Positions 1-54,930 of a DNA stretch of 64,000 bases are shown piece after piece. Each line of letters opens with the position of its first letter. Within the stretch, counting starts at the first letter, position 1. Made by a program: the position numbers and the translations under genes. This DNA is from Alphaproteobacteria bacterium (GTDB lineage Bacteria > Pseudomonadota > Alphaproteobacteria > CALKHQ01), in NCBI GenBank assembly GCA_965227515.1, contig CBDDFZ010000001.1:3615692-3679691 (forward strand), read 5' to 3'. The notes under the pieces are model-generated. The model searched no databases. It had not been told where the DNA came from and saw only the letters and a program-made list of their open reading frames with translations.

Positions 1-560
1 CGTTCTGCGCTTCGGCCCGCACCTCGCCGCACAATTGGGTGTTCCTGGAGGGCGTGAAGGCGGCACTGTGCGCGGACCAGGGCTGGAAGGGCGGCGACTA
101 CGCTTCGCCACCGGTCGCCGGGCTGAAGGCATTCGCGCGCGTCTATGCCGGCTGGGCCTATTCGCAGACCTTCTATCGCGAGGGGCTCTTCCGCCAGCTC
201 GGCTTCGCGACGCCGGAAGACCTGCTGGTCGACTGGGAGGACGACCACGCCACGAACTGGGATGCCAACGACCTGCTGGCCAAGCTCGCGACCTGGCAGG
301 CCGGCGATATCAGTGCCAATCCGCTTTATGGCGGCGATTTCGAAAAGGCCCTGGGGGCGATCACCGCGCGTGCGATCCTGATGCCGTCGACCACCGACCT
401 CTACTTCCCGCCTGATGACAATGCCATCGAGGCGCGGCACATGCCCAACGCCGAGTTCCGTCCGTACGCGTCCGACTGGGGCCATTGCGCCGCCAGCCCG
501 GGCAACGACCCCGGCTTCACCGCCGCCCTTGAGGCCAATTTGCGCGAGTTGTTGGGATAG
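1..560 (+). CDS. alpha/beta-fold hydrolase, MetX/homoserine O-acetyltransferase-like, C-terminal part (5' end outside window)
   Basis: Frame is open from the window edge (codon phase from nt 3) to TAG at 558-560. Segments DLYFPPDD and DWGHCA resemble the acid and His regions of MetX-type hydrolases. Codon third positions are GC-rich. Confidence 0.55.
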   Translation, partial: FCASARTSPHNWVFLEGVKAALCADQGWKGGDYASPPVAGLKAFARVYAGWAYSQTFYREGLFRQLGFATPEDLLVDWEDDHATNWDANDLLAKLATWQAGDISANPLYGGDFEKALGAITARAILMPSTTDLYFPPDDNAIEARHMPNAEFRPYASDWGHCAASPGNDPGFTAALEANLRELLG

Positions 561-597
561 GTCCCAAAATCGTCGCCCTCGTCGCCCCACCCCACTC

Positions 598-798
598 GTC
601 GTCCTCGCCCTTGTGGCGAGGACCCATGGCGGTGCCGGTCCCGATGCGCGAGTTGAAGGTCTCTACCGGCGTTGCCGGACGCGTGCAGCCCTCTGGAACC
701 GATCCCGCATGTCGCCCAGGAATGGGTCCTCGCCACAAGGGCGAGGACGACGAAGGAGTGGATTGCCGCGTCGCGCTAACGCGCTCCTCGCAATGACG
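598..798. repeat. REP-like hairpin elements in a convergent intergenic gap
   Basis: GTCGTCCTCGCCCTTGTGGCGAGGACCCAT (598-627) and its inverted copy (722-751) each form a CCTCGCC/GGCGAGG hairpin. GATTGCCGCGTCGCG..CGCTCCTCGCAATGACG (761-798) is the inverse of the element at 56520-56562. The hairpin family recurs at 56689-56715 and 56833-56862. Confidence 0.6.
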
Positions 799-813
799 GC
801 GGGAGAGGCCGCC

Positions 814-1848
814 CTACCCCGCGGGGCGCTTGATCGACTGGTCCACCAAGTCGCCGCGATGCTGCGCGATGGCCGCCATCAGCCGCAGCACCACGCACAC
901 CGCCAGCCGGCTGGTAACACCGCTGACATCGAATATCGGCGCCAGTTCCGACACCTCGATCACGCTCGGCCGGCCCCGCTTTCCGAGTGCTGAGGCGATG
1001 CGCATCATCTCGCGCGATTCCAGCCCGCCCGGCTCGGCCGACGTCACCCCCGGCGCCATTGACGCGTCCATGACGTTGAAGTTGAAACTGAGGTACTGCG
1101 CGTCCGTGCCATTCCAGGCCCGGTCCGCCGCCTCCGCCGCGCCGGCGTCGATGCCGTTGTCGATCAGCTCGAACATCGGATGGAAGCGGATGCCGCGCGC
1201 CTTGGCCAGGTCGACCCAGTCCTTCGGGTTCATCGAGTTGCGCGCGCCGATATGGCCGATATTCGCCGCCGCCAGGTTCGGCAGCTCGGAGATGCGGGCG
1301 AGCGCGCATGTGCTGACGTCGGCCTGACCGGCCCAGTTGTCGGCCAGGTCCAGATTGGCGCCGAAATGGAGGTAGCCCATTTTCTTGTCGGCACCCAGAT
1401 GATCCGACAGCGCCTTGGTCGCCGGGATCGAGATCGAGCGGTCGCCGCCGCAAACGATGGGCGTGATGCCGGCTTCCAGCACCTTCCGGACCGCGTCGTA
1501 AATGCGCTGCCGCGACAGGGTCGGGTTCACCTTCGGCATCGACACGTCGCCGCAGTCGACCGCCGCACCCTGCAGGTCGACCTGATATTCGAACCAGTAG
1601 GGGAAGTATTCCTGGGAGGCGATGCGGAACTCTCGCGGCCCCTCCTCCGAGCCCGGCTTGCCGACATTGCCCTCGTCGAACGGCACGCCGACGAACGCGT
1701 ACTCGACGCCGGCCTCCTTCAGCTTCTCGGTGTCCAGCGGCACGTGGTCGGCGCGCAGGAAGGTGAGTTGCGTCGGCGAGCGGTAGTTTTCGGCATCGTC
1801 GCCACCCAGCGGCGAGAAGATGTGGGCATAGGCCTTGGCGGGGTTCAT
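814..1848 (-). CDS. ureohydrolase (arginase/agmatinase) family protein with degenerate metal-binding motifs; probable non-catalytic partner subunit
   Basis: 344 aa, ATG with AAGGAA SD. Clear paralogue of the upstream gene (EYFPYWFEYQVDL vs QYFPYMFEYDVDL). It carries GGDRS, HFGANLD and SFNFNVMD in place of GGDHS, DxHxD and DxD. Confidence 0.8.
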   Translation of the reverse strand: MNPAKAYAHIFSPLGGDDAENYRSPTQLTFLRADHVPLDTEKLKEAGVEYAFVGVPFDEGNVGKPGSEEGPREFRIASQEYFPYWFEYQVDLQGAAVDCGDVSMPKVNPTLSRQRIYDAVRKVLEAGITPIVCGGDRSISIPATKALSDHLGADKKMGYLHFGANLDLADNWAGQADVSTCALARISELPNLAAANIGHIGARNSMNPKDWVDLAKARGIRFHPMFELIDNGIDAGAAEAADRAWNGTDAQYLSFNFNVMDASMAPGVTSAEPGGLESREMMRIASALGKRGRPSVIEVSELAPIFDVSGVTSRLAVCVVLRLMAAIAQHRGDLVDQSIKRPAG

Positions 1849-1865
1849 GACGTTTCCTTAGATAT

Positions 1866-2924
1866 TCAGGCCGTCTGGCCGGCGGCGCGCAGGGTGGCGG
1901 CCCGGCTGCCGAGATAGTGGTAGACCATGCAGGCGACGAGCTTGATGCTCATCTGGCTGACGTCGAACATCGGGCACAGCTCGGAGATTTCGAGCACATC
2001 GGCGCCATAGGTGCCGGCGATGCGGGCAAGCTGGATCGCCTCGCGCGGCTTGATGCCGAAGCACTCCGGCGCCGTCGTGCCGGGCATGCAGCTCGCGTCC
2101 AGAGAATCCGTGTCCCACGAGCAATAGACCGCGTCGGTACCGTTCCAGGCGATGTCGAAGATCTCGCGGGTGCAGACGTCGACCCCGCGCTCCGCCGCCT
2201 CCATCATCGGGATGATGCGGACCTGATTGTCGACGAAGAAGTCGTGCCAGTCCTTCGGGTTCAGCCCGTTGCGCGAGCCCATGTGGGCCATGTTGGCGCC
2301 GTCGCAGTTCGGCAGGTCGAACGCGCGCGCCGGGCCGGAGCAGTTGGTGTTGCGGATGCCGCCCCAGTCGGGCGCGGAGTCCAGGTGGCAGTCGATGTGC
2401 AGGTAGCCGATCTTGCCGTCGCGGTGGAAATCGGACAGCGCGTGGGCGGCTGGGATCGGCGCCGAGTGGTCGCCACCGCAGAATATCACCTTGGCACCGC
2501 CCTCCAGGCACTCGGTGATGTACTGGTGAATGTACTCGTGGCTGCGGTCGTTGTTGCCGGGCACGATCGGCACGTCGCCGCAGTCGACCGGCCGGAAGAA
2601 CGAGACCAGGTCGACATCGTACTCGAACATATAGGGGAAGTACTGGGTGGTCGCCTCACGCAGGCCGGCCGGCCCCTGCGAGGTGCCTGCGCGCACCATC
2701 TGGCCCTGATCCCACGGCACGCCCAGGAAGCAGATCTTCGCCCCCATCTCGCGGATCGCATGGCGGTCGGGCGGGCAATAGGGCGCGTTCATGAAGGTGG
2801 CGATGCCGGCCGACTTGAAGGTGCCGTTGTGCAGCTTGGGCGAGTTGATGTGATCGTCGGCGCCGCGCTGCTGCTGCGGCCCCTGGTGCTGGTGCGGCAC
2901 GAACTCCCAGGTGCCAGTGCTCAT
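1866..2924 (-). CDS. ureohydrolase (arginase/agmatinase/guanidine-hydrolase) family protein, catalytic-type subunit
   Basis: 352 aa. All three arginase-fold metal motifs are intact: CGGDHS, HIDCHLD, SWDTDSLD. The start lies 7 nt after the hypA stop. Confidence 0.85.
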   Translation of the reverse strand: MSTGTWEFVPHQHQGPQQQRGADDHINSPKLHNGTFKSAGIATFMNAPYCPPDRHAIREMGAKICFLGVPWDQGQMVRAGTSQGPAGLREATTQYFPYMFEYDVDLVSFFRPVDCGDVPIVPGNNDRSHEYIHQYITECLEGGAKVIFCGGDHSAPIPAAHALSDFHRDGKIGYLHIDCHLDSAPDWGGIRNTNCSGPARAFDLPNCDGANMAHMGSRNGLNPKDWHDFFVDNQVRIIPMMEAAERGVDVCTREIFDIAWNGTDAVYCSWDTDSLDASCMPGTTAPECFGIKPREAIQLARIAGTYGADVLEISELCPMFDVSQMSIKLVACMVYHYLGSRAATLRAAGQTA

Positions 2925-2931
2925 GACGTGC

Positions 2932-3327
2932 TCATGGGCGGTGTTCCTCGAACGCGGGTTGGATGGGTCGGGCCGGCGATGCCGGCGCGCCGAACTCGAT
3001 GCCGGTGACCTGCATCTCGCGGCCGGTCACCACCTCGTTCGCCGGCATGCCGCAGGTGCCGCAGCGGAAGGTGTAGCGCGCGGTCGGCCGGCGGGCGGCG
3101 TTGCATGTGCGGCACTGCACGGTCAGTGGCACTTCCTCGATCTCCAGGGCGGCGCCGTCGCACACCGTGCCGCGTGCCGCACGATCGAAGCAGAACAGGA
3201 GCGCGCGCCGGAAGCCCGACAGCTCGCCGAGCCGGATACGGATGGCGGCGACGTGCGTCTCGCCCTGGCTGGCGGCGTGTGCGGCCACCATCTCGATCAA
3301 ATTGCGGGCAATGGTCAGCTCATGCAT
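2932..3327 (-). CDS. hypA: HypA-type nickel metallochaperone
   Basis: N-terminal MHE(L) Ni-binding motif and two CxxC pairs (CRTC ... CGTC). The start overlaps the hypB stop by 8 nt. The longer ORF-track start (3429) would overlap hypB and is rejected. Confidence 0.85.
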
Positions 3328-4135
3328 GGGCGTGATGCGGTGTTGGCGACGCTTGGACCGCATCGCGGGTGCGGGCGAGCCAGTCGACCCAGCCCGCCAT
3401 GCCCTCGCCGGTCCGCGCCGAGAGCTCAAGCACCTCGATGTCGGGGTTCAATGCGCGGGCATGCGCGATGCAGCGCGCCACATCGAAATCGACATGGGGC
3501 AGCAGGTCGATCTTGTTCAGCACCATCAGGTCGGCGGCCATGAACATATCGGGGTACTTGGCCGGCTTGTCGTCGCCCTCGGTCACCGACAGCACGGCGA
3601 CCTTGGCGTGCTCGCCGAGGTCGAAGGTGGCGGGGCAGACCAGGTTGCCGACATTCTCGATGAACAGCACGTCGCCGGCGCCCAAGGTCAGCCCGTCCAT
3701 GGCATGGCCGATCATGTGCGCGTCCAGATGGCAGACCCGGCCAGTGTTGATCTGCACCGCCGGCACGCCGGCCGCCCGGATGCGTGCGGCGTCGTTCTCG
3801 GTCGCCTGGTCGCCCTCGATGACGGCCATCGACATGCGCCCGTCAAGCGCCGCGGCCGTGGCGGTGAGCAGGCTGGTCTTGCCGGCGCCGGGCGACGACA
3901 CGAGGTTGAGGGCGAGCACGCCCAACCCGGCAAACCGTACGCGGTTGGCTTCGGCGTAACCGTCGTTCTTGGCCAGGATGTCGAGCTCGACCGCATGCCA
4001 GTCGCGCTGGCCGTGATTGTGCTGGTGGCCGTGCGCGTGGTCGTGGTCTTGCGCGTGGCTGTGATGATGGTGGCGATGGCCATCCTTGCCACCGATGGTG
4101 ACCTCGCCCTCGCCGCAACCGCATACGCCACACAT
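3320..4135 (-). CDS. hypB: HypB-type Ni-binding GTPase (G3E family)
   Basis: Starts [10 protein letters not shown] (compare E. coli HypB MCTTCGCGEG), followed by the His-rich tract [23 protein letters not shown]-loop GSPGAGKTS, then [14 protein letters not shown] and NKIDL. The ORF-track extension to 4519 overlaps the upstream gene. Confidence 0.9.
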
Positions 4136-4146
4136 GATCGGGAATC

Positions 4147-5061
4147 CTATTCGGCCGCCTTCGCCTGCCACGACGACAGTTCCGGGATCGTGCCCTCGTA
4201 GTATGGCAGTTCGTCCACCCGCGGCGTCCACGATCCGTCGTCGATGCAGGCCTGCACGTGGGTCGCGATCTCTTCCATGGTCGCGAACCACACGCCGCCC
4301 TTGTTCTGCATCTCCTCGATCATCTTGGCGACCCGCTCGCAGCGCGCCAGCCGGCCGGAGACGAACGGATGCCACACCGTGACCCACAGGCCGTTGTGGC
4401 GGTACATCGCGTCGAACTCGGACATGAAGACGTTCATCGCCTCGTCGGGCGACTTGATCGGCATCATGTAGTGCATGTCGGGCGCGTGGGTGTAGTGCGG
4501 CCAGTCGTCCATCGCCCACTGGCTGGGCAGCTCGATCACCTGGCCCTTCTTGGTCTTCAGGATGTAAGGCACGTCGTCGCCCATCAGGCTGGCGTCATAG
4601 ATCATGCCCTGGTCGATCATGTAGTCGAGCGAGTATTTGGAGAAGTTGTAGAGCGGCGCGCGCCAGCCGCGCGGCTTCTTGCCGGTCATCTTGCGGATCG
4701 TTTCGATCTGGCGCTCGAACCAGTAGAGCTCCTCCTCGGCGCTGAGCTGGTTCGGGTTCTCGTGCAGATAGCCGTGGGCGGCGATCTCGTGCCCGCCCTC
4801 CAGGATGATGTCGACCAGGTGCGGATAGCGCTCCATGCACCACGCCGGATAGAAGAACGTCTGCTTGATGTCGTAGCGCTTGTACATCTCCACGATGCGC
4901 GGGATCGCGACCTCGTCGTACTTCAGCCACGACATGGTCGACAGCATGGTCGGCGCGCGGTCGCCGTGCTCCAGGTGCAGGATGCTGTCGGTGTCGATGT
5001 CGAAGGTGATGGCGCAGGCCACGCGGGCGCCGTTCGGCCAGGGCACGGGATTGCTGATCAT
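4147..5061 (-). CDS. polysaccharide deacetylase (NodB-fold, CE4/PuuE-like) family hydrolase
   Basis: 304 aa with TFDIDTD and [15 protein letters not shown] motifs. Paralogue of 52637-53515. GAGGGGA SD. Confidence 0.8.
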
Positions 5062-5094
5062 GGTCGTGGTCCCCTCATCCGCTATGAGAACGGT

Positions 5095-6369
5095 TCACTT
5101 TATGGCAATGCCGTCGGCCTGCACCAGCAGGCCTTCGCGCGGCAGGCCGTAGACACGCACCGGCGTCATCGCCGGCCGGGCATTCGGCGCCACCTGGCGC
5201 CACACATCGCACACGGCGTAGAAGGCGTCGGCCACGTCGGGCGCGCCCTCCTCACCGACCAGGAACAGGTTGAGCTTGACCAGGTCGTCCAGCGACGCGC
5301 CGCCCTCGGCCAGCACCCGCGCCACCCGGTCGAACACGATGCGCGCCTGTCCGGCAACGTCGCCCGGCGCCAGCACATCGCCGCCGCCGCTGAGCGCAAC
5401 CTGCCCGCCGACATAGATCTCCTCGCCCGCCGCAAGCCCGTCCGACGCGAAGGCCGGCTGGTAGCGCCCGCCCAGGTCCGCGGCGGACAGCACGTGGCGC
5501 GCCGGGTCGATCACCGCCATGGCGTCGATCTCCAGCACCAGGCCGGGATAGAGCAGGTCGACCCCGAAGGCGGAGAACACCGGCCCCGGTGCTTTGAAAA
5601 CCTCGCCCGACACGTCCAGGATCGATGGCAGATAGCCGGTCGCCGGATCGCCGCCCTGCGATTGCTTGAAGCAGATCTTCACCCGCACGACGTCGTCCAG
5701 CGTGCCGCCGGCATCGACGACCACCTGCTCGATGAAGCGATAGATATTGCGGGTCTGGGTCACCACGTCGTCGACCGCCACCGACCGGCCCTTCTCGTCG
5801 GCCGAGATCTGGCCGCCGACGAAGATCTGGTTGCCGGTGCGCCACCCCTGGGAAAGCGGCACCGCGATGCTCCAGTCCCAGCTTCCGTCGGGCATGATGC
5901 GCTGGCGGGTGCGCCGTGCCCCGCCGCGCAGCGCTACCCCTTCGATCTGGATCAACTGGCCGGCATAGGGCATGCCCTTGATCCGCACCGCGGTCGCCGC
6001 CGGGCCGGGATCGGGGAAGTACTCCAGACGGACGGCGGTCATGTCCTCCCAGTACTTGGTGGCGTCGGCATCGTCGCCCTCGAAGACGTAGTAGGTGTTC
6101 AGGCGCGCCAGATCGGCCATCTCCAGGCCCGACTGCGCCAGGGTCGCCTTCATGTTCTCGAACACATTGCGGGTCTGGGCGGCGATGTCGCCGGCATCTT
6201 TCACCGAACCGTCGGCATTCAGGGTCTGCTGCCCGCTGACGAAGACCTGGTCGCCGATCTCCACCGACTGCGCGAACGGCACGGGCCGCGCCCAAGCCCA
6301 AACGCCGCCATTGTCGGCGTTGGCGGTTCGCGGCGTCGCATCGCCGGGGTGCGGGACAGGCTGGCTCAT
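5095..6369 (-). CDS. fusion protein with three tandem YjgF/RidA (endoribonuclease L-PSP) domains
   Basis: 424 aa. Three successive ~125-aa units each carry the (V/I)(F/Y)V(S/G)GQ .. Q(T/A)R(N/I)(V/I)(F/Y) .. domain pattern. Confidence 0.8.
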   Translation of the reverse strand: MSQPVPHPGDATPRTANADNGGVWAWARPVPFAQSVEIGDQVFVSGQQTLNADGSVKDAGDIAAQTRNVFENMKATLAQSGLEMADLARLNTYYVFEGDDADATKYWEDMTAVRLEYFPDPGPAATAVRIKGMPYAGQLIQIEGVALRGGARRTRQRIMPDGSWDWSIAVPLSQGWRTGNQIFVGGQISADEKGRSVAVDDVVTQTRNIYRFIEQVVVDAGGTLDDVVRVKICFKQSQGGDPATGYLPSILDVSGEVFKAPGPVFSAFGVDLLYPGLVLEIDAMAVIDPARHVLSAADLGGRYQPAFASDGLAAGEEIYVGGQVALSGGGDVLAPGDVAGQARIVFDRVARVLAEGGASLDDLVKLNLFLVGEEGAPDVADAFYAVCDVWRQVAPNARPAMTPVRVYGLPREGLLVQADGIAIK

Positions 6370-6418
6370 TGTGTCGGGTCCGATTCAGGCACGTCAGATC
6401 AAGCGGATATGGGCAGGG

Positions 6419-7405
6419 TCAGCCGGCAACGGCCAGGCCGCGGTGATACTGCTCCAGGGCAGCGATCGCCTCCTCGGCCGCGCCGTCGCTTTCCGGCAGA
6501 GCACCGCAGTAGGTCTGGATGGCCTTCGCGGCCAGCGGCTTCCATTTCTCGATCCAGTCGCGCATCGCGGCACGGCTCGCCTCGTTGCCGGCGGCGAACT
6601 CCACCAGTGCCGCGCTCCACCGGCGCGACCGCTCGGCATCGCGCAACTGGTTGTCGGCCAGCATCGCCAGCAGCGGGTCGCGGAAGCGCCGCGCCGTCTT
6701 GCCGAGCTGGCGCAGGCATTCGTCGGCGGCCGGCTTGGCGACCACGTTCAGCGCAATGAAGTTTTCGCCCCAGTCGTAGGTGGCCAGCGTGCGCTCGATC
6801 AGTTCGCGCAGGCCCTGCCACGCCGGGTGCTCTTCCCAGTGCCGGCGCTCGTCCTTGCCGAAGCCGCGGTCGGGATGCGCGATCCGAAGCTCGCGGGTGC
6901 GATAGGCCATGCGCGACAGCCAGCGGAACTCGTCGCCCTCCTGGAACCCGGCGGCCGCCGTGATGGTGCTGGCGGGCGCAATCTGCAGGATGTAGGCGGC
7001 GCCCATCTGCAACGCCATCTGCAGGTAGCGGCGCGGCGTGTAGAGGGATTCCAGCACGCCCAGCCAGTCGTCGGCCAACTCGCTGTCGTAGCCCTGCTCG
7101 TTGTGCTCGTCGAGCAGGCCGTCGATGTATTCCTCCTGGCCGTCCTGGGTGCGGGTATAGACACGGTAGACTAGCTCGTCCGGGTCGCGGAACCCCTCCC
7201 AGTCGTCATGCTGCAGCGGGCTCTCGGCGACGTTCTTCTGGTACCAGGTATTCATATCCAGCAACGGCGCCGGCGACAGCTCATAGGCCTGGTCGGGGTA
7301 GCGGTTGCGGGTCTGCAGGTTGGTGGTGACGATCTCGTACTCGCTGGGACGGCGGCGGTTCTTCGCCAGCCCGCTCCAGGTCTTCATGCCGGTCAGTTCA
7401 ACCAT
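6419..7405 (-). CDS. soluble diiron monooxygenase hydroxylase beta subunit (TmoE/TouE-like)
   Basis: 328 aa. Family resemblance to aromatic/alkene monooxygenase beta subunits, and it occupies the position after the effector as in tmoABCDE. Confidence 0.8.
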   Translation of the reverse strand: MVELTGMKTWSGLAKNRRRPSEYEIVTTNLQTRNRYPDQAYELSPAPLLDMNTWYQKNVAESPLQHDDWEGFRDPDELVYRVYTRTQDGQEEYIDGLLDEHNEQGYDSELADDWLGVLESLYTPRRYLQMALQMGAAYILQIAPASTITAAAGFQEGDEFRWLSRMAYRTRELRIAHPDRGFGKDERRHWEEHPAWQGLRELIERTLATYDWGENFIALNVVAKPAADECLRQLGKTARRFRDPLLAMLADNQLRDAERSRRWSAALVEFAAGNEASRAAMRDWIEKWKPLAAKAIQTYCGALPESDGAAEEAIAALEQYHRGLAVAG

Positions 7406-7435
7406 TTCCCCACCCTTCCCGCTTGCGTCCGAAAC

Positions 7436-7735
7436 CTACTTCGCCAAGAAGCGCATCGCTTCGTTGTCGACGCGGATGAACCCCTCGAACGAGGGCATGA
7501 ACACTTCGATGTCGCCACGCGTCACCGCACGGCCCAGCATGTCGCCGACCGTGTCGAAGCGCACCACGCACTCGCCGCGCACCTTGATACGCAGGTAGGA
7601 GGCGTGCTCCTCCACCTGGATCTCGCGGCCCTGGTTGTCTTCCTCGATCGCCTCGACCACGGCGTCGGCCATGTCGCCGGTGCGCATCACCGGGCCGACG
7701 AAGCGGTCCTCCTCAGCTCCAGTTCCGTCTGGCAT
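7436..7735 (-). CDS. monooxygenase effector/coupling protein (MmoB/DmpM family, TmoD-like)
   Basis: 99 aa from the ATG at 7735, which is preceded by a GAGAGGAGGGGG SD. VGPVMRTGD...EITVEE-like pattern (REIQVEEHASYLRIKV) as in TmoD. Confidence 0.8.
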   Translation of the reverse strand: MPDGTGAEEDRFVGPVMRTGDMADAVVEAIEEDNQGREIQVEEHASYLRIKVRGECVVRFDTVGDMLGRAVTRGDIEVFMPSFEGFIRVDNEAMRFLAK

Positions 7736-7774
7736 CGCCCCCTCCTCTCGCGGCCCGGCCGCCAACCGCCGCGT

Positions 7775-8098
7775 TCAGCCCACGCCGGCCGGTGTCAGCA
7801 CCACCTTGACCTCGCCGTCCTCGACCTTGACCGGATAGCTGGTCAGCGCCACGCCGGTCGGGTTCACGCCCTTGCCGGTCAGCACGTCGAACTCCCACAT
7901 ATGCGCCAGGCACGTCAGCACGCAGCCGTCCAAATCGCCCTCGGCCAGCGACTGGTCCTGGTGCGGGCAGCGCGGATGGAACGCGCGCACCTCACCGCCC
8001 GGCGCGTGCACGATCAGCACGTCGGTGCCGGCGACCGTGAACAGCTCCATCTCGCCTTCCCAGATATCGTCCAGGCTGCAAACGGTCTGGTATTCCAT
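7775..8098 (-). CDS. Rieske [2Fe-2S] ferredoxin (TmoC-like)
   Basis: MEYQTVCSLDDIWEGEM aligns with the TmoC N-terminus. Cluster ligands CPH ... CLAH are present. The ORF-track start at 8113 is a TTG, so the ATG at 8098 is preferred. Confidence 0.85.
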   Translation of the reverse strand: MEYQTVCSLDDIWEGEMELFTVAGTDVLIVHAPGGEVRAFHPRCPHQDQSLAEGDLDGCVLTCLAHMWEFDVLTGKGVNPTGVALTSYPVKVEDGEVKVVLTPAGVG

Positions 8099-8109
8099 GC
8101 CGGTCCCGC

Positions 8110-8370
8110 TCAAGCTTCCGGATAGATTTCGATGGCTTCCATCTCGGCCAGCCCGGCGCCGGACACGGTAGCATCGTCGGCCAGCGGCGCGTCGGCGCCC
8201 TGCACCTTCACTTTCAGCCTGGTGCCATCCGGGAACGGCGCCACCAGCACGCTGGCCACCTGATCCAGCGCCTTCTCAACCACGGTCGTCATGGGGTCGC
8301 CATCGTCGACCACCAGCACCTTGTAGCCGTAGTCGCCGTGCAGGTAGCAGGCGAGCGGGAAGTCTGCCAT
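8110..8370 (-). CDS. TmoB-like small subunit of the diiron monooxygenase hydroxylase
   Basis: 86 aa, MADFPLACYL..YKVLVVDDGDPM..VEK pattern like TmoB. Position between alpha and ferredoxin. The long ORF-track version (to 8685) overlaps the alpha gene. Confidence 0.7.
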   Translation of the reverse strand: MADFPLACYLHGDYGYKVLVVDDGDPMTTVVEKALDQVASVLVAPFPDGTRLKVKVQGADAPLADDATVSGAGLAEMEAIEIYPEA

Positions 8371-8381
8371 GACGCCGTCCG

Positions 8382-9881
8382 TCACTCTGCGGCCTGGGCC
8401 GGCGGCTGGTGATAGCCGTCGATCCAGGCATAGTCGTAGCCGTCGACACCGCGCTCGGCCGGGCTCTGGCCCATGTATTCGTAGAAGGCGTCCTCGCCGG
8501 GCGGGATGGTGCCGTCGAACGCCCGGTCGATGATGCTGCGGTGGCCCTTGTAGCGGTTGGGCTCGACCTCGAAGATCCACTTGCAGACCGGCGAGCAGAA
8601 GTGATAGCGGCGCCCGTCCAGGTGAATGTGGTGGTCGGTCGCGTGCGCACCGGTCCCCGCGACGCCCGAGACCTCCAGCCCGCACATGTTGCAGATCAGC
8701 GGCGGCGCCACCGGCACCGTCTTCTCATAGGCACCCTGGCGGATGTTCTCGATGATGACGTCCCAGCACTTGCCGTAGGTGTCGTTCCAGCCGGGATACT
8801 TCTCCTCCAGCCAGTCGCGCTCCTCCGGCGACACGCCGGCGATCGGCCGCCACCATTCGGTCGCGCGGTAGATGTAGACGCCGATCTGCTGGGCGTGGTG
8901 GAAGGTCTCGATATCCCACTGGAAGTAGTCCCAGTACCACGGCATATCGAGGCCCAGCGCATCCAGGCTGCGGCCGAACTGGCCGATGACCCACTCGTGC
9001 ATGAACTCCTTCAGCGAGTTCTCCCGGTGCTCCAGCGGGGTGTAGTAGTCCATGCCGATGCCGCTCAGCGCGGAGAACTGCTTCCACATCCGCCAGAAGG
9101 CGATGTCGACCAGTTGCTGCGCCTCTTTCTTGCGGCCGTTCTCCAGCATGATGCGCACCATCGGCTCGCCGATCTGGGCGTGGCGCGCCTCGTCGGACTG
9201 GATCGACTGCAGCATGGTCGCGAATGTGTGGTCGCCGAACTTGGCCGCGTCCGCCGACAGGGCGACGAACTGCAGGTTCGTGAACGCCTGCTCCAGGCCC
9301 ATGTTCAACATGATGCCGGCACTCACCGCGTCGCGGGTGTGGGCGATGTCGTCCAGCGCGTGGCGCAGGCTGATGATGATCCAGTTCTCGGTCTTCGACG
9401 ACTTGTGGCACCAGTCGAACACGCGGTCGTGGCGCAGGAACTCATAGGCGAAGTAGATCTGGATCTGACCGTGGCGGATTTCGTCCAGCGTGCCGAAGGT
9501 CGCCATGTTGCGCAGGCCGGGCGCGCGGCCGAAGCGGGTCATCCGCCCGAACGCGGATGCGGAGTGGAACTCCGCCCAGCACACCGCGCTGAAGTGCAGC
9601 GCCAGCAACGCCTTCCAGTGCGGAGACGCATTCTTGAAGAAGTTGGAGCGTGACAGCGCCGCCTTCACCGAATAGGCGCCGACGTCCTTCTCGCGCTGGG
9701 TCTTCACATAGTCGCGGTACGAGACCTTGTAGGGCTCGTCGAACTTCTCCCACTCCTCGACCGGGATGCCGAAAGAGTTCGCCATCGGCGCCGGATACAG
9801 CTCGTCCTCGGTGACGTATTTCGGTGTCCAGTTGGTCTCGCGCGCCAGATCGTACCATTCGCTCATCGGCAGCATGGCCAT
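8382..9881 (-). CDS. soluble diiron monooxygenase hydroxylase alpha subunit (TmoA/TouA-like)
   Basis: 499 aa from the ATG at 9881 (GGAGGAG SD). Diiron motifs AEFH, DEIRH, GLEQAF and DEARH. C-terminal Cys-rich CNMCG...HFCSPVCK segment. Confidence 0.9.
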   Translation of the reverse strand: MAMLPMSEWYDLARETNWTPKYVTEDELYPAPMANSFGIPVEEWEKFDEPYKVSYRDYVKTQREKDVGAYSVKAALSRSNFFKNASPHWKALLALHFSAVCWAEFHSASAFGRMTRFGRAPGLRNMATFGTLDEIRHGQIQIYFAYEFLRHDRVFDWCHKSSKTENWIIISLRHALDDIAHTRDAVSAGIMLNMGLEQAFTNLQFVALSADAAKFGDHTFATMLQSIQSDEARHAQIGEPMVRIMLENGRKKEAQQLVDIAFWRMWKQFSALSGIGMDYYTPLEHRENSLKEFMHEWVIGQFGRSLDALGLDMPWYWDYFQWDIETFHHAQQIGVYIYRATEWWRPIAGVSPEERDWLEEKYPGWNDTYGKCWDVIIENIRQGAYEKTVPVAPPLICNMCGLEVSGVAGTGAHATDHHIHLDGRRYHFCSPVCKWIFEVEPNRYKGHRSIIDRAFDGTIPPGEDAFYEYMGQSPAERGVDGYDYAWIDGYHQPPAQAAE

Positions 9882-9910
9882 GGCCCCATCTCCTCCACTG
9901 GCAGTGCGGT

Positions 9911-10178
9911 CCACGAATTTCGTGGCGAACCTGGCCAGTGAAGCACGAATTCCTCCGCACTGCCAAGCGCGCTTGTGAGAAATTCGCGATATTGCCCAAA
10001 AATGCCGCACAATTCGTGGCTGGCGTGCAGGCCATGCCGCATTCGCAGGCAGTCAGGCGATCCGGCTTGTGCCAGTTCGAGGGTTGACAAGGACTTCATT
10101 GACGAAATTCGTGCGGATGAATACCGTGGGTACCGCAAACGCTCAGCAGTTCAGCTAGTTTGCATCGAAATTCGTGAC
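9911..10178. promoter_or_regulatory. array of CACGAA-n-TTCGTG operator-like boxes in the divergent control region
   Basis: Perfect 7-1-7 palindrome CCACGAAtTTCGTGG at 9911-9925. Related boxes at 9977-9988, 10005-10019, 10101-10114 and 10164-10178. TTCG cores recur about every 31 bp. TTGACA hexamer at 10084-10089. Confidence 0.5.
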
Positions 10179-10232
10179 CGCGCCGGCCTTCGCGCTGGAC
10201 ATGGTCCGCGGCCGCGGACGTTGGGGAACGCG

Positions 10233-10994
10233 ATGGCAGCCACAAACGGCAGGTCGGGGGGCACGAAGGCGAACGGCGCCAAGGCCGGGGGTGCGAAGAC
10301 GGGCGGCGCGAAAACGCGCGGCCGCTCCAAGCCTTCCGGAAAGTCGGCCGGAAAATCCGCTGCCAAGTCTTCCGCGAAATCCAGGCGAGCCGAGAGCGGC
10401 GCCGTCGATGCCCGCCTCGTCATGGGCGCGCGCAGCCTGCTCTCCAGCAACGGTGACGAAAACGTCGAAGATGCGTTCGGCCACCGCCCGCCGCCCATCG
10501 AGGGCCTGAACCGCAGCATCGTCGAAATCCTGCAGGAGGACGGCCGCGCCTCGCTGTCGTCGATCGCGGAAGTGCTGGGCGTTTCCGAGGCCACCGTGCG
10601 TAGCCGCGTGTCGCGCATGCGCAAGGCCAACCTGATCAACTTCATCGCCGTCATCAACCCGCTGGCCCTGGGCTTCACCGCATGGGCGATGCTGGGCATC
10701 CGGGTCGCCCAAGGGGCCAGCGCCGACGATGTGGCGCGCTACTTCAGCGACTGCCCGGAGGTGGTCTACGTCATGCGGGTTGCCGCCCGCTTCGACCTGT
10801 TGGCCGAGATCGTCTGCGAGACGCCCGACGACCTGCGCGACTTCCTGGATCGCCATTGTTATGGCGCACCCGACGTGGCGTCGGTCGAGCCGATGATCGG
10901 GCTCGGTCTCTACAAGAGCCTGTTCAAGTGGGACCGGCCGATCGTTGCCGGCAATGGTTCCAATCACGGCGGCAACAGCAACGGCAGCAAATAG
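10233..10994 (+). CDS. Lrp/AsnC-family transcriptional regulator with a ~90-aa Lys/Ala/Gly/Ser-rich N-terminal extension
   Basis: HTH_AsnC-like LNRSIVEILQEDGRASLSSIAEVLGVSEATVRSRVSRM followed by a RAM/AsnC_trans_reg-like C-terminal half. The N-terminus carries AKAGGAKTGGAKTRGRSKPSGKSAGKSAAKSSAKS. The start choice is uncertain. Confidence 0.75.
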   Translation: MAATNGRSGGTKANGAKAGGAKTGGAKTRGRSKPSGKSAGKSAAKSSAKSRRAESGAVDARLVMGARSLLSSNGDENVEDAFGHRPPPIEGLNRSIVEILQEDGRASLSSIAEVLGVSEATVRSRVSRMRKANLINFIAVINPLALGFTAWAMLGIRVAQGASADDVARYFSDCPEVVYVMRVAARFDLLAEIVCETPDDLRDFLDRHCYGAPDVASVEPMIGLGLYKSLFKWDRPIVAGNGSNHGGNSNGSK

Positions 10995-11124
10995 GGAGCC
11001 GGCCGATGGGGGGCGGGACATCGAAGCATGCAGGAACAGCGGCGCCGGCGGTCGCCGCACCACATGCGGCAAAGCTCTTGCATGGGACCGCCCCATGGCT
11101 GGGCCGCGAGACGAGTGGTGACCG

Positions 11125-12024
11125 ATGAGCGTGCGCGACGACATCAGCGACACCGATACGCGCGACGTGGAAACGATGCACGAGCACGACGGCGGTGCAG
11201 CGTCCCCGGCGCCGGTGTTCAAGCCGCCGCGCGAGCGCTTCCTGGAGGTGCGCGGCACCGTCAGCCAGCACCAGACGTTGTGGCTCGGCCTGATCGGTGT
11301 TGTCGTGTTCTTCGCGATCTGGGAAATCGCGCACCAGTTGACGCCGGAGGGTGAGCAGAAGTTCCTGCCCGGCGCGATCCAGGTGGTGTCCAAGATCGGC
11401 GAGCTGATCGATGAGGAGGGCTTCCTCTACGACATCGCCAAGTCGGTCTACCGCATCTATGTCAGCTTCCTGGCCGCCTGCCTGCTGGCGGTGCCGCTGG
11501 GCCTGCTGATGGGCAGCTTCGTGAAGATGCGGGCACTGATCAACCCGACCGTGGGCGGCCTGCGCTACCTGCCGGCCGCCTCGTTCGTGCCGCTGCTGCT
11601 GGTCTACCTCGGCCCCACCGACCTCTCCAAGATGGCACTGCTGTTCCTGGGCTGCGTGTTCTTCCTGATCGCGCTGATCCTGGACAACGTGCTGGCGGTG
11701 CCGAAGGAGTTTGCGGAATCCGCGCAGACCATGGGCGCCAGCCGCAGCCATATCGTCTGGCACGTCATCTTCAAGGCGTCGGCACCGCAGATCCTGGACT
11801 CCATGCGCAACATGATCGCGGTGTCGTGGACCTATCTGGTCATCGCGGAGATCGTGGCGGCGACCGACGGGATTGGCGCGGTGATGATGCGCGCGTCACG
11901 CTTCCTGCATGTCGACATCATCATGGCGGGGATTCTGACCATCGGCGTGCTCGGGGTGCTGACCGACATCTCGTTCCGGCTGATCAGCCGCGCCCTGTTC
12001 CCCTATGTCTACGCACGGCGCTGA
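11125..12024 (+). CDS. ABC transporter permease, NitT/TauT (nitrate/sulfonate/bicarbonate-type) family
   Basis: 299 aa, multi-TM, resembles SsuC/TauC-type BPD permeases. Confidence 0.8.
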   Translation: MSVRDDISDTDTRDVETMHEHDGGAASPAPVFKPPRERFLEVRGTVSQHQTLWLGLIGVVVFFAIWEIAHQLTPEGEQKFLPGAIQVVSKIGELIDEEGFLYDIAKSVYRIYVSFLAACLLAVPLGLLMGSFVKMRALINPTVGGLRYLPAASFVPLLLVYLGPTDLSKMALLFLGCVFFLIALILDNVLAVPKEFAESAQTMGASRSHIVWHVIFKASAPQILDSMRNMIAVSWTYLVIAEIVAATDGIGAVMMRASRFLHVDIIMAGILTIGVLGVLTDISFRLISRALFPYVYARR

Positions 12025-12039
12025 GGCTGGAGGCGGGGG

Positions 12040-12873
12040 ATGAACATGCCAGTCGATCCAGCCAGCCGCGAGGCGGCGACCCAGACCGCGGCATCGCCGC
12101 CCATCCGTTGCCGCCGCGTCACCAAGGAGTACCTGGGCGGCAGCCGCGTCGCGCTGAACGACATCACCCTCGACATCCATGAGAACCAGGTGACCGCCCT
12201 GATCGGCCCGTCCGGCTGCGGCAAGACCACCCTGCTCCGCCTGATCGCCGGCCTGGAATTCCCGACCCGCGGCGAGGTCCTGATGCACGACAAGCCGGTG
12301 CTGGGCCCCGGCCCGGAACGCGGCATGGTGTTCCAGGCCTACACCTCGTTCCCGTGGCTGACCGCGCGCAAGAACGTCGAGCACGGCATGAAGATCCAGA
12401 ACCTGCCGCGGCCCGAGCGGATGAGCCGGGCGCAGCATTTCCTGGAGCTGGTTCACCTGGACGAGTTCGCCGAGGCCTATCCGGTGGAGATGTCGGGCGG
12501 CATGAAGCAGCGCGTCGCCATCGCGCGCACACTGGCGCAGAACCCGGACCTGCTGCTGCTGGACGAGCCGTTCGGCGCGCTGGACGCCCAGGTGACCTGG
12601 GAAATGGAAGAGATGGTCATCGAGATCATCGAGAACGAGAGCAAGACCGTCATCCTGGTCACCCACGACATCCAGGAAGCGATCTACCTGGCCGACCGCA
12701 TCATCTTCTTCACGCGGCAGCCGGGCCGGATCAAGGCCGACCTGTCGATGGAGTTCAAGGAGGGACGGCGTTTCGCCAAGAAGGAGGAGCTGCTGGTCCA
12801 TCCCGGATACCCGGAGATGGAGAAGCTGCTCTACACGATGATGCGCGAAGAGATTCAGGGGCGCATCTCGTGA
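12040..12873 (+). CDS. ABC transporter ATP-binding protein, NitT/TauT family
   Basis: Walker A GPSGCGKTT, signature SGGMKQR, Walker B LLLLDEPF. GGAGG SD. Confidence 0.9.
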   Translation: MNMPVDPASREAATQTAASPPIRCRRVTKEYLGGSRVALNDITLDIHENQVTALIGPSGCGKTTLLRLIAGLEFPTRGEVLMHDKPVLGPGPERGMVFQAYTSFPWLTARKNVEHGMKIQNLPRPERMSRAQHFLELVHLDEFAEAYPVEMSGGMKQRVAIARTLAQNPDLLLLDEPFGALDAQVTWEMEEMVIEIIENESKTVILVTHDIQEAIYLADRIIFFTRQPGRIKADLSMEFKEGRRFAKKEELLVHPGYPEMEKLLYTMMREEIQGRIS

Positions 12874-12950
12874 GCCGGCGGCCAGGCAGGCGGCCGGGCC
12901 GGACAACCAGTGGGCCGATGGGGGTCCACGCAACCTCGGGGAGATCGGGT

Positions 12951-14000
12951 ATGAGGGACCACATCATGCGCGTTTGCAGGCCAGCCGCGCTGGCACTGGG
13001 CATTGTCGCGTTGGGGGGCGCGGCGGCCTCGACGGCAAGTGCACAGGAAACGGTGCGTATCGGCCACTTCAGCTGGCCCGGCTACGGCTTCTTCTACGTG
13101 GCTCAGGAACAGGGCTTGGCGCCCGACCTGGAGTTCGAGTTCACGGTGATCGAAGACCCGGTGCAGCTGTTCAGCCTGCTGGCGACCGATCAGCTCGACG
13201 TCGTGCTCAGCACCATCGAGTTCGGGCCGATCGCCGCCGCCGAGGACATGGCGCTGAAGCTGGTCTCGCTGACCAATCTCGGCTACGGCTCCGACCACAT
13301 CATCGTCCACCCCGACATCGAGAGCCCGGAAGACCTGCGCGGCCAGCAGGTGGCGGTACTGGAGGGCGGCCTGTCGCAGATCTACATGGCGATCTGGCTC
13401 GAGCAGCAGGGCATCGCCTGGGACGAGGTCGAGATGGTCAACCTGATCGCCGGTGACGCCGCCGCCGCGATGATCAGCGGCCAGGTGGCCGCCGCCGAGC
13501 TGTGGGACCCGTTCGGCGCCCAGGTGCTGGCGGAACTGGAAGGCTCCCGCGAGCTCAGCCACTCGCGCGAACCGCAGTGGCTTGAGTCGGCGCTGATCGC
13601 CGATGCGCTGTTCATGTCGGACACGTTCCTGACCGAGAACCGCGACACCGCCACCAAGACCGTGCAGGCGCTGTTCGCCGGCGTCGAGTGGTGGCGCGCC
13701 AACGCGACCGAGGCGAACGATATCATCGCCGAGGCGGTCGGCTTCAGCGTCGACGACGTGCAGGCCATCCTGGGCGGCGAGAACAACCCCGAGGACGGGA
13801 CCCTCTATATGTACTCGCTGGAAGAGGCGGCCCAGTTCTGCGGCGTGGCCGATGGCGAGCCGCCGTTCGGCCAGACCAACGGCCAGATGGCCGATCACTG
13901 GGCGCTGACCAACACCTGGTGGATCAACTTCGGGCTGATGGACGAGACGGTCGCGCCCGAAGCCGGGCTCGATTGCGCCCTCCTGGGCGAGGCGATGTAG
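12951..14000 (+). CDS. ABC transporter periplasmic substrate-binding protein (NMT1/SsuA/TauA-like)
   Basis: Signal peptide MRVCRPAALALGIVALGGAAASTASAQ and a GGGGAG SD. The ORF-track N-terminal extension (12354) overlaps the ATPase gene and is rejected. Confidence 0.8.
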   Translation: MRDHIMRVCRPAALALGIVALGGAAASTASAQETVRIGHFSWPGYGFFYVAQEQGLAPDLEFEFTVIEDPVQLFSLLATDQLDVVLSTIEFGPIAAAEDMALKLVSLTNLGYGSDHIIVHPDIESPEDLRGQQVAVLEGGLSQIYMAIWLEQQGIAWDEVEMVNLIAGDAAAAMISGQVAAAELWDPFGAQVLAELEGSRELSHSREPQWLESALIADALFMSDTFLTENRDTATKTVQALFAGVEWWRANATEANDIIAEAVGFSVDDVQAILGGENNPEDGTLYMYSLEEAAQFCGVADGEPPFGQTNGQMADHWALTNTWWINFGLMDETVAPEAGLDCALLGEAM

Positions 14001-14029
14001 CCCCGGTCAGATACAATCAACGCACGGCG

Positions 14030-14060
14030 ATGGCGGCCCCAGTGGCCGCCATTGTCGTTT
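14030..14060 (+). terminator. putative intrinsic terminator in a convergent gap
   Basis: ATGGCGGCC-ccagt-GGCCGCCAT stem-loop followed by TGTCGTTT. Confidence 0.4.
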
Positions 14061-14099
14061 GTGGCGCTCCGACGAAGTGCAGTTACCGCTGCCCCAACT

Positions 14100-19038: not shown

Positions 19039-19045
19039 TTGGTGG

Positions 19046-36098: not shown

Positions 36099-36123
36099 CG
36101 CGCAGCACTCCTCATGGGACGCC

Positions 36124-45964: not shown

Positions 45965-45969
45965 CTCAC

Positions 45970-53532: not shown

Positions 53533-53880
53533 ATGTGCGGGCTTTGCGGCATGCTGGGGGTCGACGTTCACTGGAGCGACGCCGCCAGCACGCCCGAAGC
53601 CTTCGTCGGCCGGGACATATCGCGCCGGCGGGATCGTGCCGAACGCATCACGCTGATCGATCGCATCCTGCGCCCTGCCGGCATTCGGGCCCGTGACTGG
53701 CAGGGCACGTCCTATGTGCTGTCGACCCTGACCGGCAAGACCGCAGTGGTCGATCATCTGGGCCGTCTTTGGGCGGAGGCGGAGCGTCTGGCCGGGCGCC
53801 CGCTCGACCCGCTTGCCCCGGATCTGATCGTCGCCCTGGAGCGTGCCGGCGAACCGGAAGCGGCCGATGCCGGCATATGA
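53533..53880 (+). CDS. hypothetical small protein with N-terminal CxxC (MCGLCGM...)
   Basis: 115 aa with GC3-rich codon usage like its neighbours. Starts 18 nt after the deacetylase stop and overlaps the COG0523 start by 14 nt. No family recognised. Confidence 0.45.
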   Translation: MCGLCGMLGVDVHWSDAASTPEAFVGRDISRRRDRAERITLIDRILRPAGIRARDWQGTSYVLSTLTGKTAVVDHLGRLWAEAERLAGRPLDPLAPDLIVALERAGEPEAADAGI

Positions 53881-54898: not shown

Positions 54899-54930
54899 CC
54901 GACCCAAGCAGCCGACCAAGGGGGATGAAC

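Follow-up and report, generated by a model that had tools for sequence, protein, structure and literature searches.

Recurrent linkage of a toluene-monooxygenase-like oxygenase module to the dimethylguanidine hydrolase family

Introduction

Why do the genes of a soluble diiron monooxygenase (SDIMO) resembling toluene monooxygenases lie beside, and read in the same direction as, those of a ureohydrolase with its own nickel chaperones? The question is raised by a 64,000-nucleotide stretch of the genome of an Alphaproteobacteria bacterium (GenBank assembly GCA_965227515.1, contig CBDDFZ010000001.1, positions 3,615,692 to 3,679,691 of the forward strand), referred to below as the window. Eleven genes at 814-9881 encode both enzymes, together with a triple-domain Rid/YjgF protein (Rid3) and a NodB-fold hydrolase (NodB). 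A first-pass annotation of the window described the cluster as a fusion of a monooxygenase to a ureohydrolase. It proposed that the monooxygenase hydroxylates a carbon next to a guanidine nitrogen and that the Rid protein handles the imine that results.

The ureohydrolase resembles DmgH, a Ni-dependent heteromeric enzyme that needs HypA and HypB and converts N,N-dimethylguanidine to dimethylamine and urea (Sinn 2024, PMC11399263). Metformin hydrolase (MefH) recently evolved from DmgH (Sinn 2024, PMC11399263), and both the natural source and the role of N,N-dimethylguanidine are stated to be unknown (PMC11399263; PMC12508155). The DmgH half of the cluster belongs to a family reported in 2024; in the literature searched we found no account of the oxygenase-Rid3-NodB module or of its repeated pairing with DmgH. 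In this analysis we identify the eleven genes, place the ureohydrolase pair in the DmgH family, and find that the two halves are separate modules whose linkage recurs across genomes.

Results

Eleven genes form two adjacent modules

All eleven cluster genes were assigned to families by Pfam and NCBIfam. They are consecutive minus-strand open reading frames (ORFs) with high GC3, and in reading order they are as follows.

8382-9881, minus strand: SDIMO hydroxylase alpha subunit (TmoA/TouA-like, 499 aa); PF02332 plus a YHS domain
8110-8370, minus strand: TmoB-like small subunit (86 aa); PF06234, 55.5 bits; 11 nt past the alpha stop
7775-8098, minus strand: Rieske [2Fe-2S] ferredoxin (TmoC-like); PF00355/PF13806
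7436-7735, minus strand: effector/coupling protein TmoD (MmoB/DmpM family); PF02406, 82 bits
6419-7405, minus strand: SDIMO hydroxylase beta subunit (TmoE-like); PF02332, 205 bits
5095-6369, minus strand: Rid3, triple-domain Rid/YjgF protein (424 aa); three PF01042 stretches
4147-5061, minus strand: NodB/CE4-fold hydrolase (304 aa); PF01522 (Polysacc_deac_1), 64 bits
3320-4135, minus strand: HypB Ni-GTPase metallochaperone (271 aa; CxxCGC motif, His-rich tract); TIGR00073, 290 bits, above cutoff
2932-3327, minus strand: HypA Ni metallochaperone; PF01155, 96.5 bits; overlaps HypB by 8 nt
1866-2924, minus strand: DmgH-type ureohydrolase, catalytic alpha subunit; PF00491; full metal-ligand set; relatives of MefH alpha
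814-1848, minus strand: DmgH-type ureohydrolase, degenerate beta subunit; PF00491; relatives of MefH beta

With rechecked starts the junctions measure 11, 11, 39, 30, 49, 33, 11, -8, 7 and 17 nt, and only 11 nt separate NodB, the last gene of the oxygenase module (module 1), from HypB. The starts were checked by the alignment of TmoA with TouA from residue 1, by the HypB sequence MCGVCGCG at 4135 and by the TmoD ATG at 7735. The ORFs, the family assignments and these starts agree with the gene order and junctions first annotated. A scan of the cluster for sigma-70 and terminator consensus sequences, which has low power at ~67% GC, found zero promoter-like sites and zero terminator-like sites on the coding strand; the non-coding strand carries a single weak terminator-like site, which is uninformative at this GC content.

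The oxygenase module is widespread and usually occurs without DmgH

Related loci were gathered by scanning genomes with the DmgH alpha subunit as seed and metagenomes with Rid3, and by looking up individual proteins. Loci compared with the window carry L-numbers (e.g. L164). The collection scanned with DmgH alpha held 185,579 species genomes, among which 143 DmgH relatives were confirmed.

TmoABCDE(F)-Rid3-NodB recurred in more than 50 loci, mostly marine or sponge-associated, and the order TmoA-B-C-D-E-(F)-Rid3-NodB was kept in more than 30 of the loci gathered. An ArgE/DapE-type M20 deacylase gene often follows NodB, and divergent genes upstream usually encode an Lrp regulator together with an NMT1-type ABC transporter. 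Rid3 has more than 400 homologues, mostly in marine samples, and adjoins NodB in 45 of the 45 module loci where NodB was found; a plasmid search for Rid3 orthologues returned only proteins 27-28% identical. A distant version of the module exists in soil (Rid3 ~40-44%, TmoA ~60-64% identical). The cultured bacterium Sneathiella litorea carries the module with TmoF and the M20 gene, and without DmgH. No ring-cleavage dioxygenase or other aromatic-pathway gene accompanies TmoABCDE(F)-Rid3-NodB in any of the more than 50 module loci.

We regard module 1 as a unit because its gene order recurs and because NodB, its most conserved gene, is 78-90% identical across Alpha- and Gammaproteobacteria. We conclude that TmoABCDE(F)-Rid3-NodB is an independent, widespread unit that usually occurs without DmgH. 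The module is not described in the literature that we searched.

The oxygenase module and DmgH are recurrently linked

Among the DmgH-seeded loci, the oxygenase module lay within 10 kb of DmgH in 11 of 80, and in 9 of the 51 with full flanks. Approached from the other side, DmgH was present in 7 of 16 Rid3-seeded loci reaching at least 3.5 kb past NodB. The pairing of the oxygenase with a HypAB-serviced ureohydrolase, whose co-occurrence in other genomes the first-pass annotation had proposed to look for, was found in at least 18 loci besides the window, in Alpha- and Gammaproteobacteria. With no more than 143 DmgH relatives confirmed across all the genomes scanned, the contribution of chance adjacency is negligible, and repeated independent juxtaposition points to a functional connection between the modules.

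The co-directional arrangement of the window recurs only in L164, its closest relative, in which TmoA and the ureohydrolase alpha subunit are 84-88% identical to those of the window and ~99 nt separate NodB from the DmgH side. The modules are convergent in eleven loci, mainly from Arenicellales, 'Poriferihabitaceae' and other Gammaproteobacteria; convergence with an intervening M20 gene was seen in three loci. They are separated in L066, by a glutamine synthetase (GS)-like gene, hypB and urease genes, and in L084 and L108, by several kb. Most DmgH operons, including those of the characterised Aminobacter and Hyphomicrobium types, read Lrp-ABC-hypB-hypA-alpha-beta without an oxygenase.

We conclude that the oxygenase-DmgH link is real but not obligatory, and that a single-operon arrangement is limited to the window and L164. 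The adjacency first annotated therefore holds, whereas the word fusion overstates it, since the modules are mostly separate and, where linked, usually convergent. That annotation also knew of no SDIMO-ureohydrolase coupling, and our literature searches (metformin/dimethylguanidine hydrolase with monooxygenase; SDIMO with RidA or deacetylase) likewise found no description of the linkage.

The ureohydrolase half groups with DmgH and MefH

The best solved relatives of the window alpha and beta subunits were MefH subunit A (E = 5e-178) and MefH subunit B (E = 1.5e-158), respectively. The pair is roughly 70% identical to MefH and 68-69% identical to the Aminobacter loci. Compared with characterised DmgH enzymes, the alpha and beta subunits share ~79% and 72% identity with that of Hyphomicrobium (published trimmed alignment) and ~69% and 66% with that of Aminobacter. 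The two subunits are 41% identical to each other and represent distinct alpha and beta lineages, both within PF00491. Metal-ligand motifs are complete in alpha (GGDHS, HIDCHLD, WDTDSLD) and degenerate in beta (GGDRS, HFGANLD, FNFNVMD). The hypB-hypA genes lie directly upstream of the pair, with a gap of 7 nt between HypA and alpha, and no hydrogenase or urease genes were found in the 64-kb window.

The specificity loop reads S-T-S in DmgH and N-S-A in MefH. In the window alpha subunit it is G-T-T (CMPGTTAPECFG), the same as in the tested Hyphomicrobium DmgH, which is ~70% identical to the Aminobacter enzyme, shares its activity and is inactive on metformin (PMC11399263). On the strength of the similarity to MefH and the Hyphomicrobium enzyme, the ligand pattern, the GTT loop and the adjacent hypAB genes, we assign the ureohydrolase half by sequence as a further member of the DmgH/MefH family with dedicated Ni chaperones. 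The first-pass annotation had read the pair as a heteromeric, HypAB-serviced ureohydrolase; this reading needs the correction that the enzyme falls in a family described before (PMC11399263). Ni dependence, an alpha2beta4 assembly and the conversion of N,N-dimethylguanidine to dimethylamine and urea are predicted for the window pair. The homomeric guanidine hydrolase GdmH and ordinary agmatinases were considered and set aside as far more distant (E = 1e-42 and weaker).

MefH/MfmAB/MetCaCb and DmgH are Ni-dependent alpha2beta4 ureohydrolases with HypA/HypB, and the window shares their tandem arginase-family alpha/beta genes after hypB-hypA, with intact ligands in alpha and degenerate ones in beta (Sinn 2024, PMC11399263; Li 2024, PMC11271267; Tassoulas 2024, PMC10927577). 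Unlike these systems, the window pair stands directly downstream of SDIMO-Rid3-NodB, in what would be the same operon, and is not followed by a HupE or urease gene.

L020, a gammaproteobacterial locus that also contains the oxygenase module, encodes at 1484-2677 a third ureohydrolase of 397 aa that has a His-rich insertion. It lies upstream of hypB-DmgH, has its own binding protein and, judged by eye, is possibly a GdmH-type homomeric guanidine hydrolase.

The diiron enzyme keeps its metal ligands and has an altered pocket

TmoA aligned with TouA of ToMO end to end from residue 1 and almost without gaps (E ~1e-186 to 3e-186), and with T4MO at E = 1e-176. The component set alpha-TmoB-Rieske-effector-beta follows the canonical tmoABCDE order, and all six diiron ligands (E104, E134, H137, E197, E231 and H234, ToMO numbering) are kept in the window TmoA and in 28 orthologues. 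In component order, diiron ligands and end-to-end alpha alignment the system therefore resembles the group 2 SDIMOs ToMO (TouABCDEF) and T4MO (TmoABCDEF).

The hydrophobic aromatic pocket of ToMO (I100, E103/G103, A107, F176, M180, F196 etc.) is not retained in the window TmoA. Thirteen pocket or near-pocket residues are changed with respect to ToMO: I100V, A101C, L102W, E103A, A106H, A107S, E111F, F175A, F176L, M180A, M181H, T193N and F196L. Across the 28 orthologues, 7 of the 13 positions are invariant and 6 near-invariant. Four of the changes (F175A, F176L, M180A, F196L) enlarge the pocket, the residues S107, H106, H181 and N193 add polarity, and there are zero acidic gains. Judged from these residues, the TmoA cavity is larger, somewhat more polar and neutral.

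In 8 loci, a class-A flavoprotein monooxygenase occupies the place of the diiron system directly upstream of Rid3-NodB, in each case on a marine contig (L111, L114, L115, L118, L119 at 8760-12155, L121, L122 and L131). Its best NCBIfam match was the urate hydroxylase HpxO, below cutoff and barely ahead of other aromatic hydroxylases. We conclude that in these loci the first enzyme has been replaced by a non-orthologous one. The replacement points to an electron-rich ring in the substrate; taken with the altered pocket, it argues for a neutral, electron-rich ring rather than a hydrocarbon or a guanidinium with its permanent positive charge. On these same two grounds we disfavoured guanidinium as the direct SDIMO substrate.

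The electron supply also differs among loci. In 27 related loci, Sneathiella and L164 (7216-8109) among them, TmoE and Rid3 are separated by a TmoF reductase gene, whereas 49 nt remain between tmoE and rid3 in the window (6369-6419). The Arenicellales loci likewise have no TmoF, and we conclude that TmoF was lost more than once. Queries by tblastn with further neighbours from related loci (M20, flavoprotein monooxygenase, GS-like, PhyH, homocysteine-S-methyltransferase-like, GMC and MBL) gave zero matches in the window. Thus, unlike ToMO and T4MO, the window system has no reductase gene, its 13 pocket residues are fixed or nearly fixed otherwise, enzymes of its type are always linked to Rid3 and NodB and never to aromatic ring-cleavage genes, and a flavin monooxygenase takes their place in 8 loci.

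Rid3 and NodB depart from their best-known relatives

Rid3 matched TIGR00004 with 131.8 bits, above cutoff, which places it in the Rid/YjgF fold; a match to RutC (NCBIfam) was sub-threshold. The deaminase activity of RidA depends on a conserved arginine, R105 in E. coli. In an alignment with the E. coli RidA sequence, the Arg105 column holds Ala, Phe and Met in the Rid3 domains. A different arginine, four residues downstream of this column, is conserved in domains 1 and 3. We rejected the identification of Rid3 as a canonical RidA, Arg105 being missing in all three domains. Together, this loss, the neutral pocket and the flavin replacement in 8 loci weaken the first-pass annotation's scheme of SDIMO hydroxylation next to a guanidine nitrogen followed by imine handling by the Rid protein. 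Searches of the PDB with Rid3 and with the binding protein of the window transporter gave only remote, uninformative matches.

For NodB, the closest solved structure was 3rxz (uncharacterised), followed by HpPgdA and then by PuuE allantoinase. Motifs read by eye (TFDID, HEIAAH, RAPLY, DDW and WH) suggest that NodB keeps the CE4 Asp-His-His metal triad. PuuE-type allantoinases lack this triad, and the matches of NodB to PuuE and TIGR03212 were weak. Since a ring-cleavage dioxygenase is never found with the module, ring opening, if any, would be hydrolytic, a plausible job for a CE4 enzyme.

The window encodes a second NodB/CE4 paralogue at 52637-53515, followed at 53843-56340 by a CobW-type metallochaperone GTPase and an amidohydrolase, possibly a further case of a hydrolase coupled with a metal chaperone.

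Neighbouring genes fit urea and methylated amines as end products

The genes around the two modules offer hints at their products. In L164, the DmgH beta gene runs directly into urease, type-III GS-like (gmaS-like) and GATase/GXGXG/Glu-synthase genes (14064-19511); the last of these resemble N-methylglutamate synthase, an enzyme of methylamine metabolism. A gmaS-like GS gene stands beside DmgH in six or seven further loci, and genes of this set also adjoin DmgH in L021 (1611-3035) and L066 (12229-13638). The module is flanked by urease accessory genes and creatinase in L163, and by a PhyH dioxygenase and a trimethylamine/dimethylamine-dehydrogenase-like flavoprotein in L165. These neighbours fit urea and methylated amines as end products, and the urease, GS-like and N-methylglutamate-synthase-like genes suggest that urea and methylamines are channelled onward.

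Three loci in which the modules are linked have a homocysteine-S-methyltransferase-like gene and a PhyH dioxygenase gene near the DmgH side (L017, 1061-2850; L037, 1288-3123; L124, 8222-10057). Within the window, 22588-24774 encodes a 728-aa protein with an N,N-dimethylformamidase beta-like C-terminal domain (PF20254, 285 bits), a further candidate methylated-amine-releasing enzyme near the cluster.

Regulator, transporter and surroundings of the cluster

The following features adjoin the cluster.

9882-10232, no strand: divergent control region, 351 bp; six GAAATTCGTG boxes at 9912-10176
10233-10994, plus strand: Lrp/AsnC-family regulator with a Lys/Ala-rich N-terminal tail; PF13404 and PF01037
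11125-14000, plus strand: NitT/TauT-type ABC importer; by Pfam, permease 11125-12024, ATPase 12040-12873, NMT1-type binding protein 12951-14000
592-760, no strand: repetitive extragenic palindrome (REP)-like hairpin elements, an inverted pair at the 3' end of the operon

Both boundaries are where the earlier reading put them, with the control region extending up to the Lrp/AsnC ATG at one end and, at the other, the REP pair and a convergent ORF (39-560) beyond it. The 10-bp box GAAATTCGTG occurs, with at most one mismatch, six times in the 265 bp of 9912-10176; the window total is 9, versus 2.1 expected. It is also enriched upstream of tmoA in L164 (4 copies), L017 (3), L022 and L108. An Lrp/AsnC orthologue (60-82% identical) adjoins the module in many loci, and the box is probably the operator of this regulator. 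A scan of positions 1-15000 against Rfam at E <= 1 gave zero riboswitch matches, the guanidine riboswitch included.

The Lrp/AsnC reading frame is open from 9975, and the protein has a long Lys/Ala/Gly-rich, histone-H1-like N-terminal tail (e.g. GAKAGGAKTGGAKTRGRSKPSGKSAGKSAAKSSAKS). The Lrp orthologues of L020 and L066 have basic N-terminal extensions too.

The transporter binding proteins form two clades, an SDIMO-module type, which includes that of the window, and a DmgH-only type; in this respect the window differs from the DmgH-only operons. Only the SDIMO-type protein was found in the both-module loci of the binding-protein tree (window, L026, L066 and L108), which fits DmgH acting on a compound made inside the cell.

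The REP-like palindrome has the form GTCCTCGCC-N5-GGCGAGGAC, and its inverted pair at 601-623 and 726-748 forms a long hairpin (fold z = -6.9). A second inverted REP pair in the window, at 56692-56714 and 56837-56859 (within 56692-56859), is intergenic.

The region represented by the window is an island of cyclic amide and N-heterocycle catabolism. Three hydantoinase/oxoprolinase A+B pairs, each with an ABC transporter beside it, lie at 14100-17938, 34317-38199 and 44156-48033, the third accompanied by a hydantoin racemase (43350-44159) and an ornithine cyclodeaminase (42367-43380). Hydantoinase A/B neighbours in the window, L093 and L152 were considered as a creatinine or hydantoin clue. We dropped this idea, as the flanking pairs, with only 27-35% mutual identity, are non-orthologous.

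Discussion

We propose, tentatively and with a probability of about 0.4, that the cluster is a compact catabolic, nitrogen-scavenging operon for a serial pathway in which module 1 opens a neutral, N-methylated, guanidine-bearing heterocycle and DmgH splits the guanidine that is released. We infer co-transcription, the class of substrate and the order of the steps, which would run as follows. The NitT/TauT-type ABC importer, under the control of the Lrp-type regulator through the repeated boxes, would take up a small, uncharged, N-methylated heterocycle with a guanidine or amidine carbon, of which the methylated-guanine and 2-amino-imidazolone/pyrimidinone classes are candidates. The diiron enzyme, its Rieske ferredoxin supplied with electrons by a reductase encoded outside the window, would hydroxylate a ring carbon. 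NodB would hydrolyse the resulting lactam or N-acyl bond, and Rid3 would resolve an unstable intermediate of the enamine, imine or hemiaminal type. Finally, the 1,1-disubstituted guanidine set free in this way would be cleaved by Ni-DmgH, giving urea and a secondary amine; N,N-dimethylguanidine, which yields dimethylamine, is the only substrate shown for close DmgH relatives.

Several observations weigh against this serial pathway. We know of no established natural heterocycle that yields 1,1-dimethylguanidine. The partner module is missing from 69 of the 80 DmgH loci and from over half of the module loci, so that each module can stand alone and need not form part of a serial pathway. Most linked loci have them in convergent orientation, i.e. 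on separate transcripts. The loss of the canonical RidA arginine makes an imine-deaminase role for Rid3 uncertain, and tblastn with an orthologous TmoF query gave zero matches to a TmoF-type reductase in the 64-kb window. The Km of DmgH for dimethylguanidine is very high, 28 mM even for the improved T289S variant (PMC11399263), which makes the true DmgH substrate uncertain. Aminobacter DmgH is also inactive on methylguanidine, creatine, creatinine and asymmetric dimethylarginine (ADMA), so that, unless the window enzyme has another specificity, the simplest scheme starting from creatinine is excluded. A route from creatinine to methylguanidine, which we had considered, is weakened by the same inactivity.

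A more specific version of the proposal, that TmoABCDE(F)-Rid3-NodB is the missing biological source of N,N-dimethylguanidine through oxidative dismantling of a neutral dimethylguanidine-bearing heterocycle, we consider unlikely. Its top candidate may be N2,N2-dimethylguanine from the turnover of eukaryotic or archaeal tRNA, with a dimethylamino-imidazolone or -pyrimidinone as the alternative. If it were true, the route would parallel purine and ureide catabolism, with a hydroxylase, a CE4 hydrolase and a Rid-fold enzyme acting in turn. Module-only bacteria would then excrete a guanidine fragment that DmgH-only bacteria consume, and organisms of the window type would do both in one operon.

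The recurrence of each module by itself suits the main rival, parallel action, in which the oxygenase module and DmgH would each degrade an imported compound of their own, the two being related small nitrogen-rich molecules (e.g. a methylated heterocycle and dimethylguanidine, respectively), and would be clustered and co-regulated only for nitrogen and methylamine scavenging. Each module is alone in most loci, a related ABC transporter and Lrp regulator of their own accompany the DmgH-only operons, in Arenicellales the genes on the DmgH side include an Lrp of its own as well as a separate symporter, and convergence is the commonest linked arrangement. We nevertheless regard parallel action as possible and somewhat doubtful. 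The window and L164 have one transporter/regulator set for both modules, with DmgH directly downstream of NodB (11 nt in the window, ~99 nt in L164); the window, L026, L066 and L108 yielded only the SDIMO-type binding protein; and adjacency arose in several independent arrangements. The ABC and Lrp genes of one module type are homologous to those of the other (binding proteins 44-59% identical), which suggests related imported ligands for both. This homology, and the methylated-amine metabolism genes that cluster nearby, would suit a reverse order, in which an imported 1,1-disubstituted guanidine is first hydrolysed by DmgH and the oxygenase, Rid3 and NodB then degrade the secondary amine or another product. 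We judge this quite improbable, because module 1 occurs in many loci without DmgH, NodB and Rid3 have no obvious role after dimethylamine, and a class-A flavin enzyme replaces the SDIMO in 8 loci. Class-A flavoprotein monooxygenases are not expected to oxidise aliphatic amines of the dimethylamine type.

Two further readings are less likely still. TmoA is very similar to ToMO and T4MO and its genes stand in canonical tmoABCDE order, as expected if this were an ordinary toluene, alkene or phenol monooxygenase whose placement beside a ureohydrolase is meaningless. The invariant Rid3 and NodB synteny, without aromatic-pathway genes ever alongside, makes this very unlikely, as do the 13 invariant or near-invariant pocket substitutions, flanks that hold a NitT/TauT-type transporter and Lrp rather than aromatic-pathway regulators, and the recurrent linkage to DmgH, urease and methylamine genes. 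It is hardly credible that the window pair is a metformin hydrolase (MefH/MfmAB) acquired in adaptation to the drug. MefH subunits A and B were indeed its top PDB matches, but identity is only ~70% whereas known MefH proteins are near-identical among themselves (PMC11399263). The loop is GTT, as in the metformin-inactive Hyphomicrobium enzyme, not the NSA of MefH, and the hosts are marine and sponge-associated lineages of metagenome-assembled genomes.

The proposed logic has partial counterparts. The Rut pathway combines an oxygenase (RutA), an amidohydrolase (RutB) and a Rid protein (RutC), releases nitrogen from an N-heterocycle and involves no ring-cleavage dioxygenase. It differs in using a luciferase-like oxygenase where the loci described here have a diiron or class-A flavin enzyme, and an isochorismatase in place of a CE4 hydrolase; Rid3 is, in addition, a triple fusion without the RidA arginine. 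The resemblance is a mechanistic analogy only and not membership. The MHPCO/AAMS-amidohydrolase step of vitamin B6 degradation is a second analogue. Genetic coupling of an oxygenase to a guanidine-degrading module is also seen in methylguanidine demethylation by MgdH/MgdL, and in guanidine-releasing oxygenases; the hydroxylated intermediate of the MgdH/MgdL system is stable and requires a helper protein for its resolution (PMC12508155). This system relies on a lyase alongside a 2-oxoglutarate/Fe(II) dioxygenase, has a guanidine riboswitch and feeds guanidine carboxylase (PMC12508155), whereas the window has a diiron oxygenase with a Ni ureohydrolase downstream, and no riboswitch was found (Rfam, 1-15000). 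Overall, the interpretation in the first-pass annotation is partly supported; it missed the absence of TmoF from the window and the characterised relatives of DmgH.

DmgH is the enzyme ancestral to metformin hydrolase, and its native job is an open question in the field (PMC11399263; PMC12508155). The linkage described here is, as far as we found, the first contextual lead on the origin of dimethylguanidine and on the native role of DmgH, and it suggests an oxidative route in bacteria from the sea and from sponges. It further marks out an extensive branch of toluene-monooxygenase-like enzymes, whose Rid3 partners number more than 400 in public data. The cultured carrier Sneathiella litorea makes the question experimentally accessible. 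Both the altered pocket and the conservation of the partner genes favour a nitrogen heterocycle over a hydrocarbon as substrate; if that is the case, 'toluene monooxygenase' genes in ocean metagenomes would be read differently.

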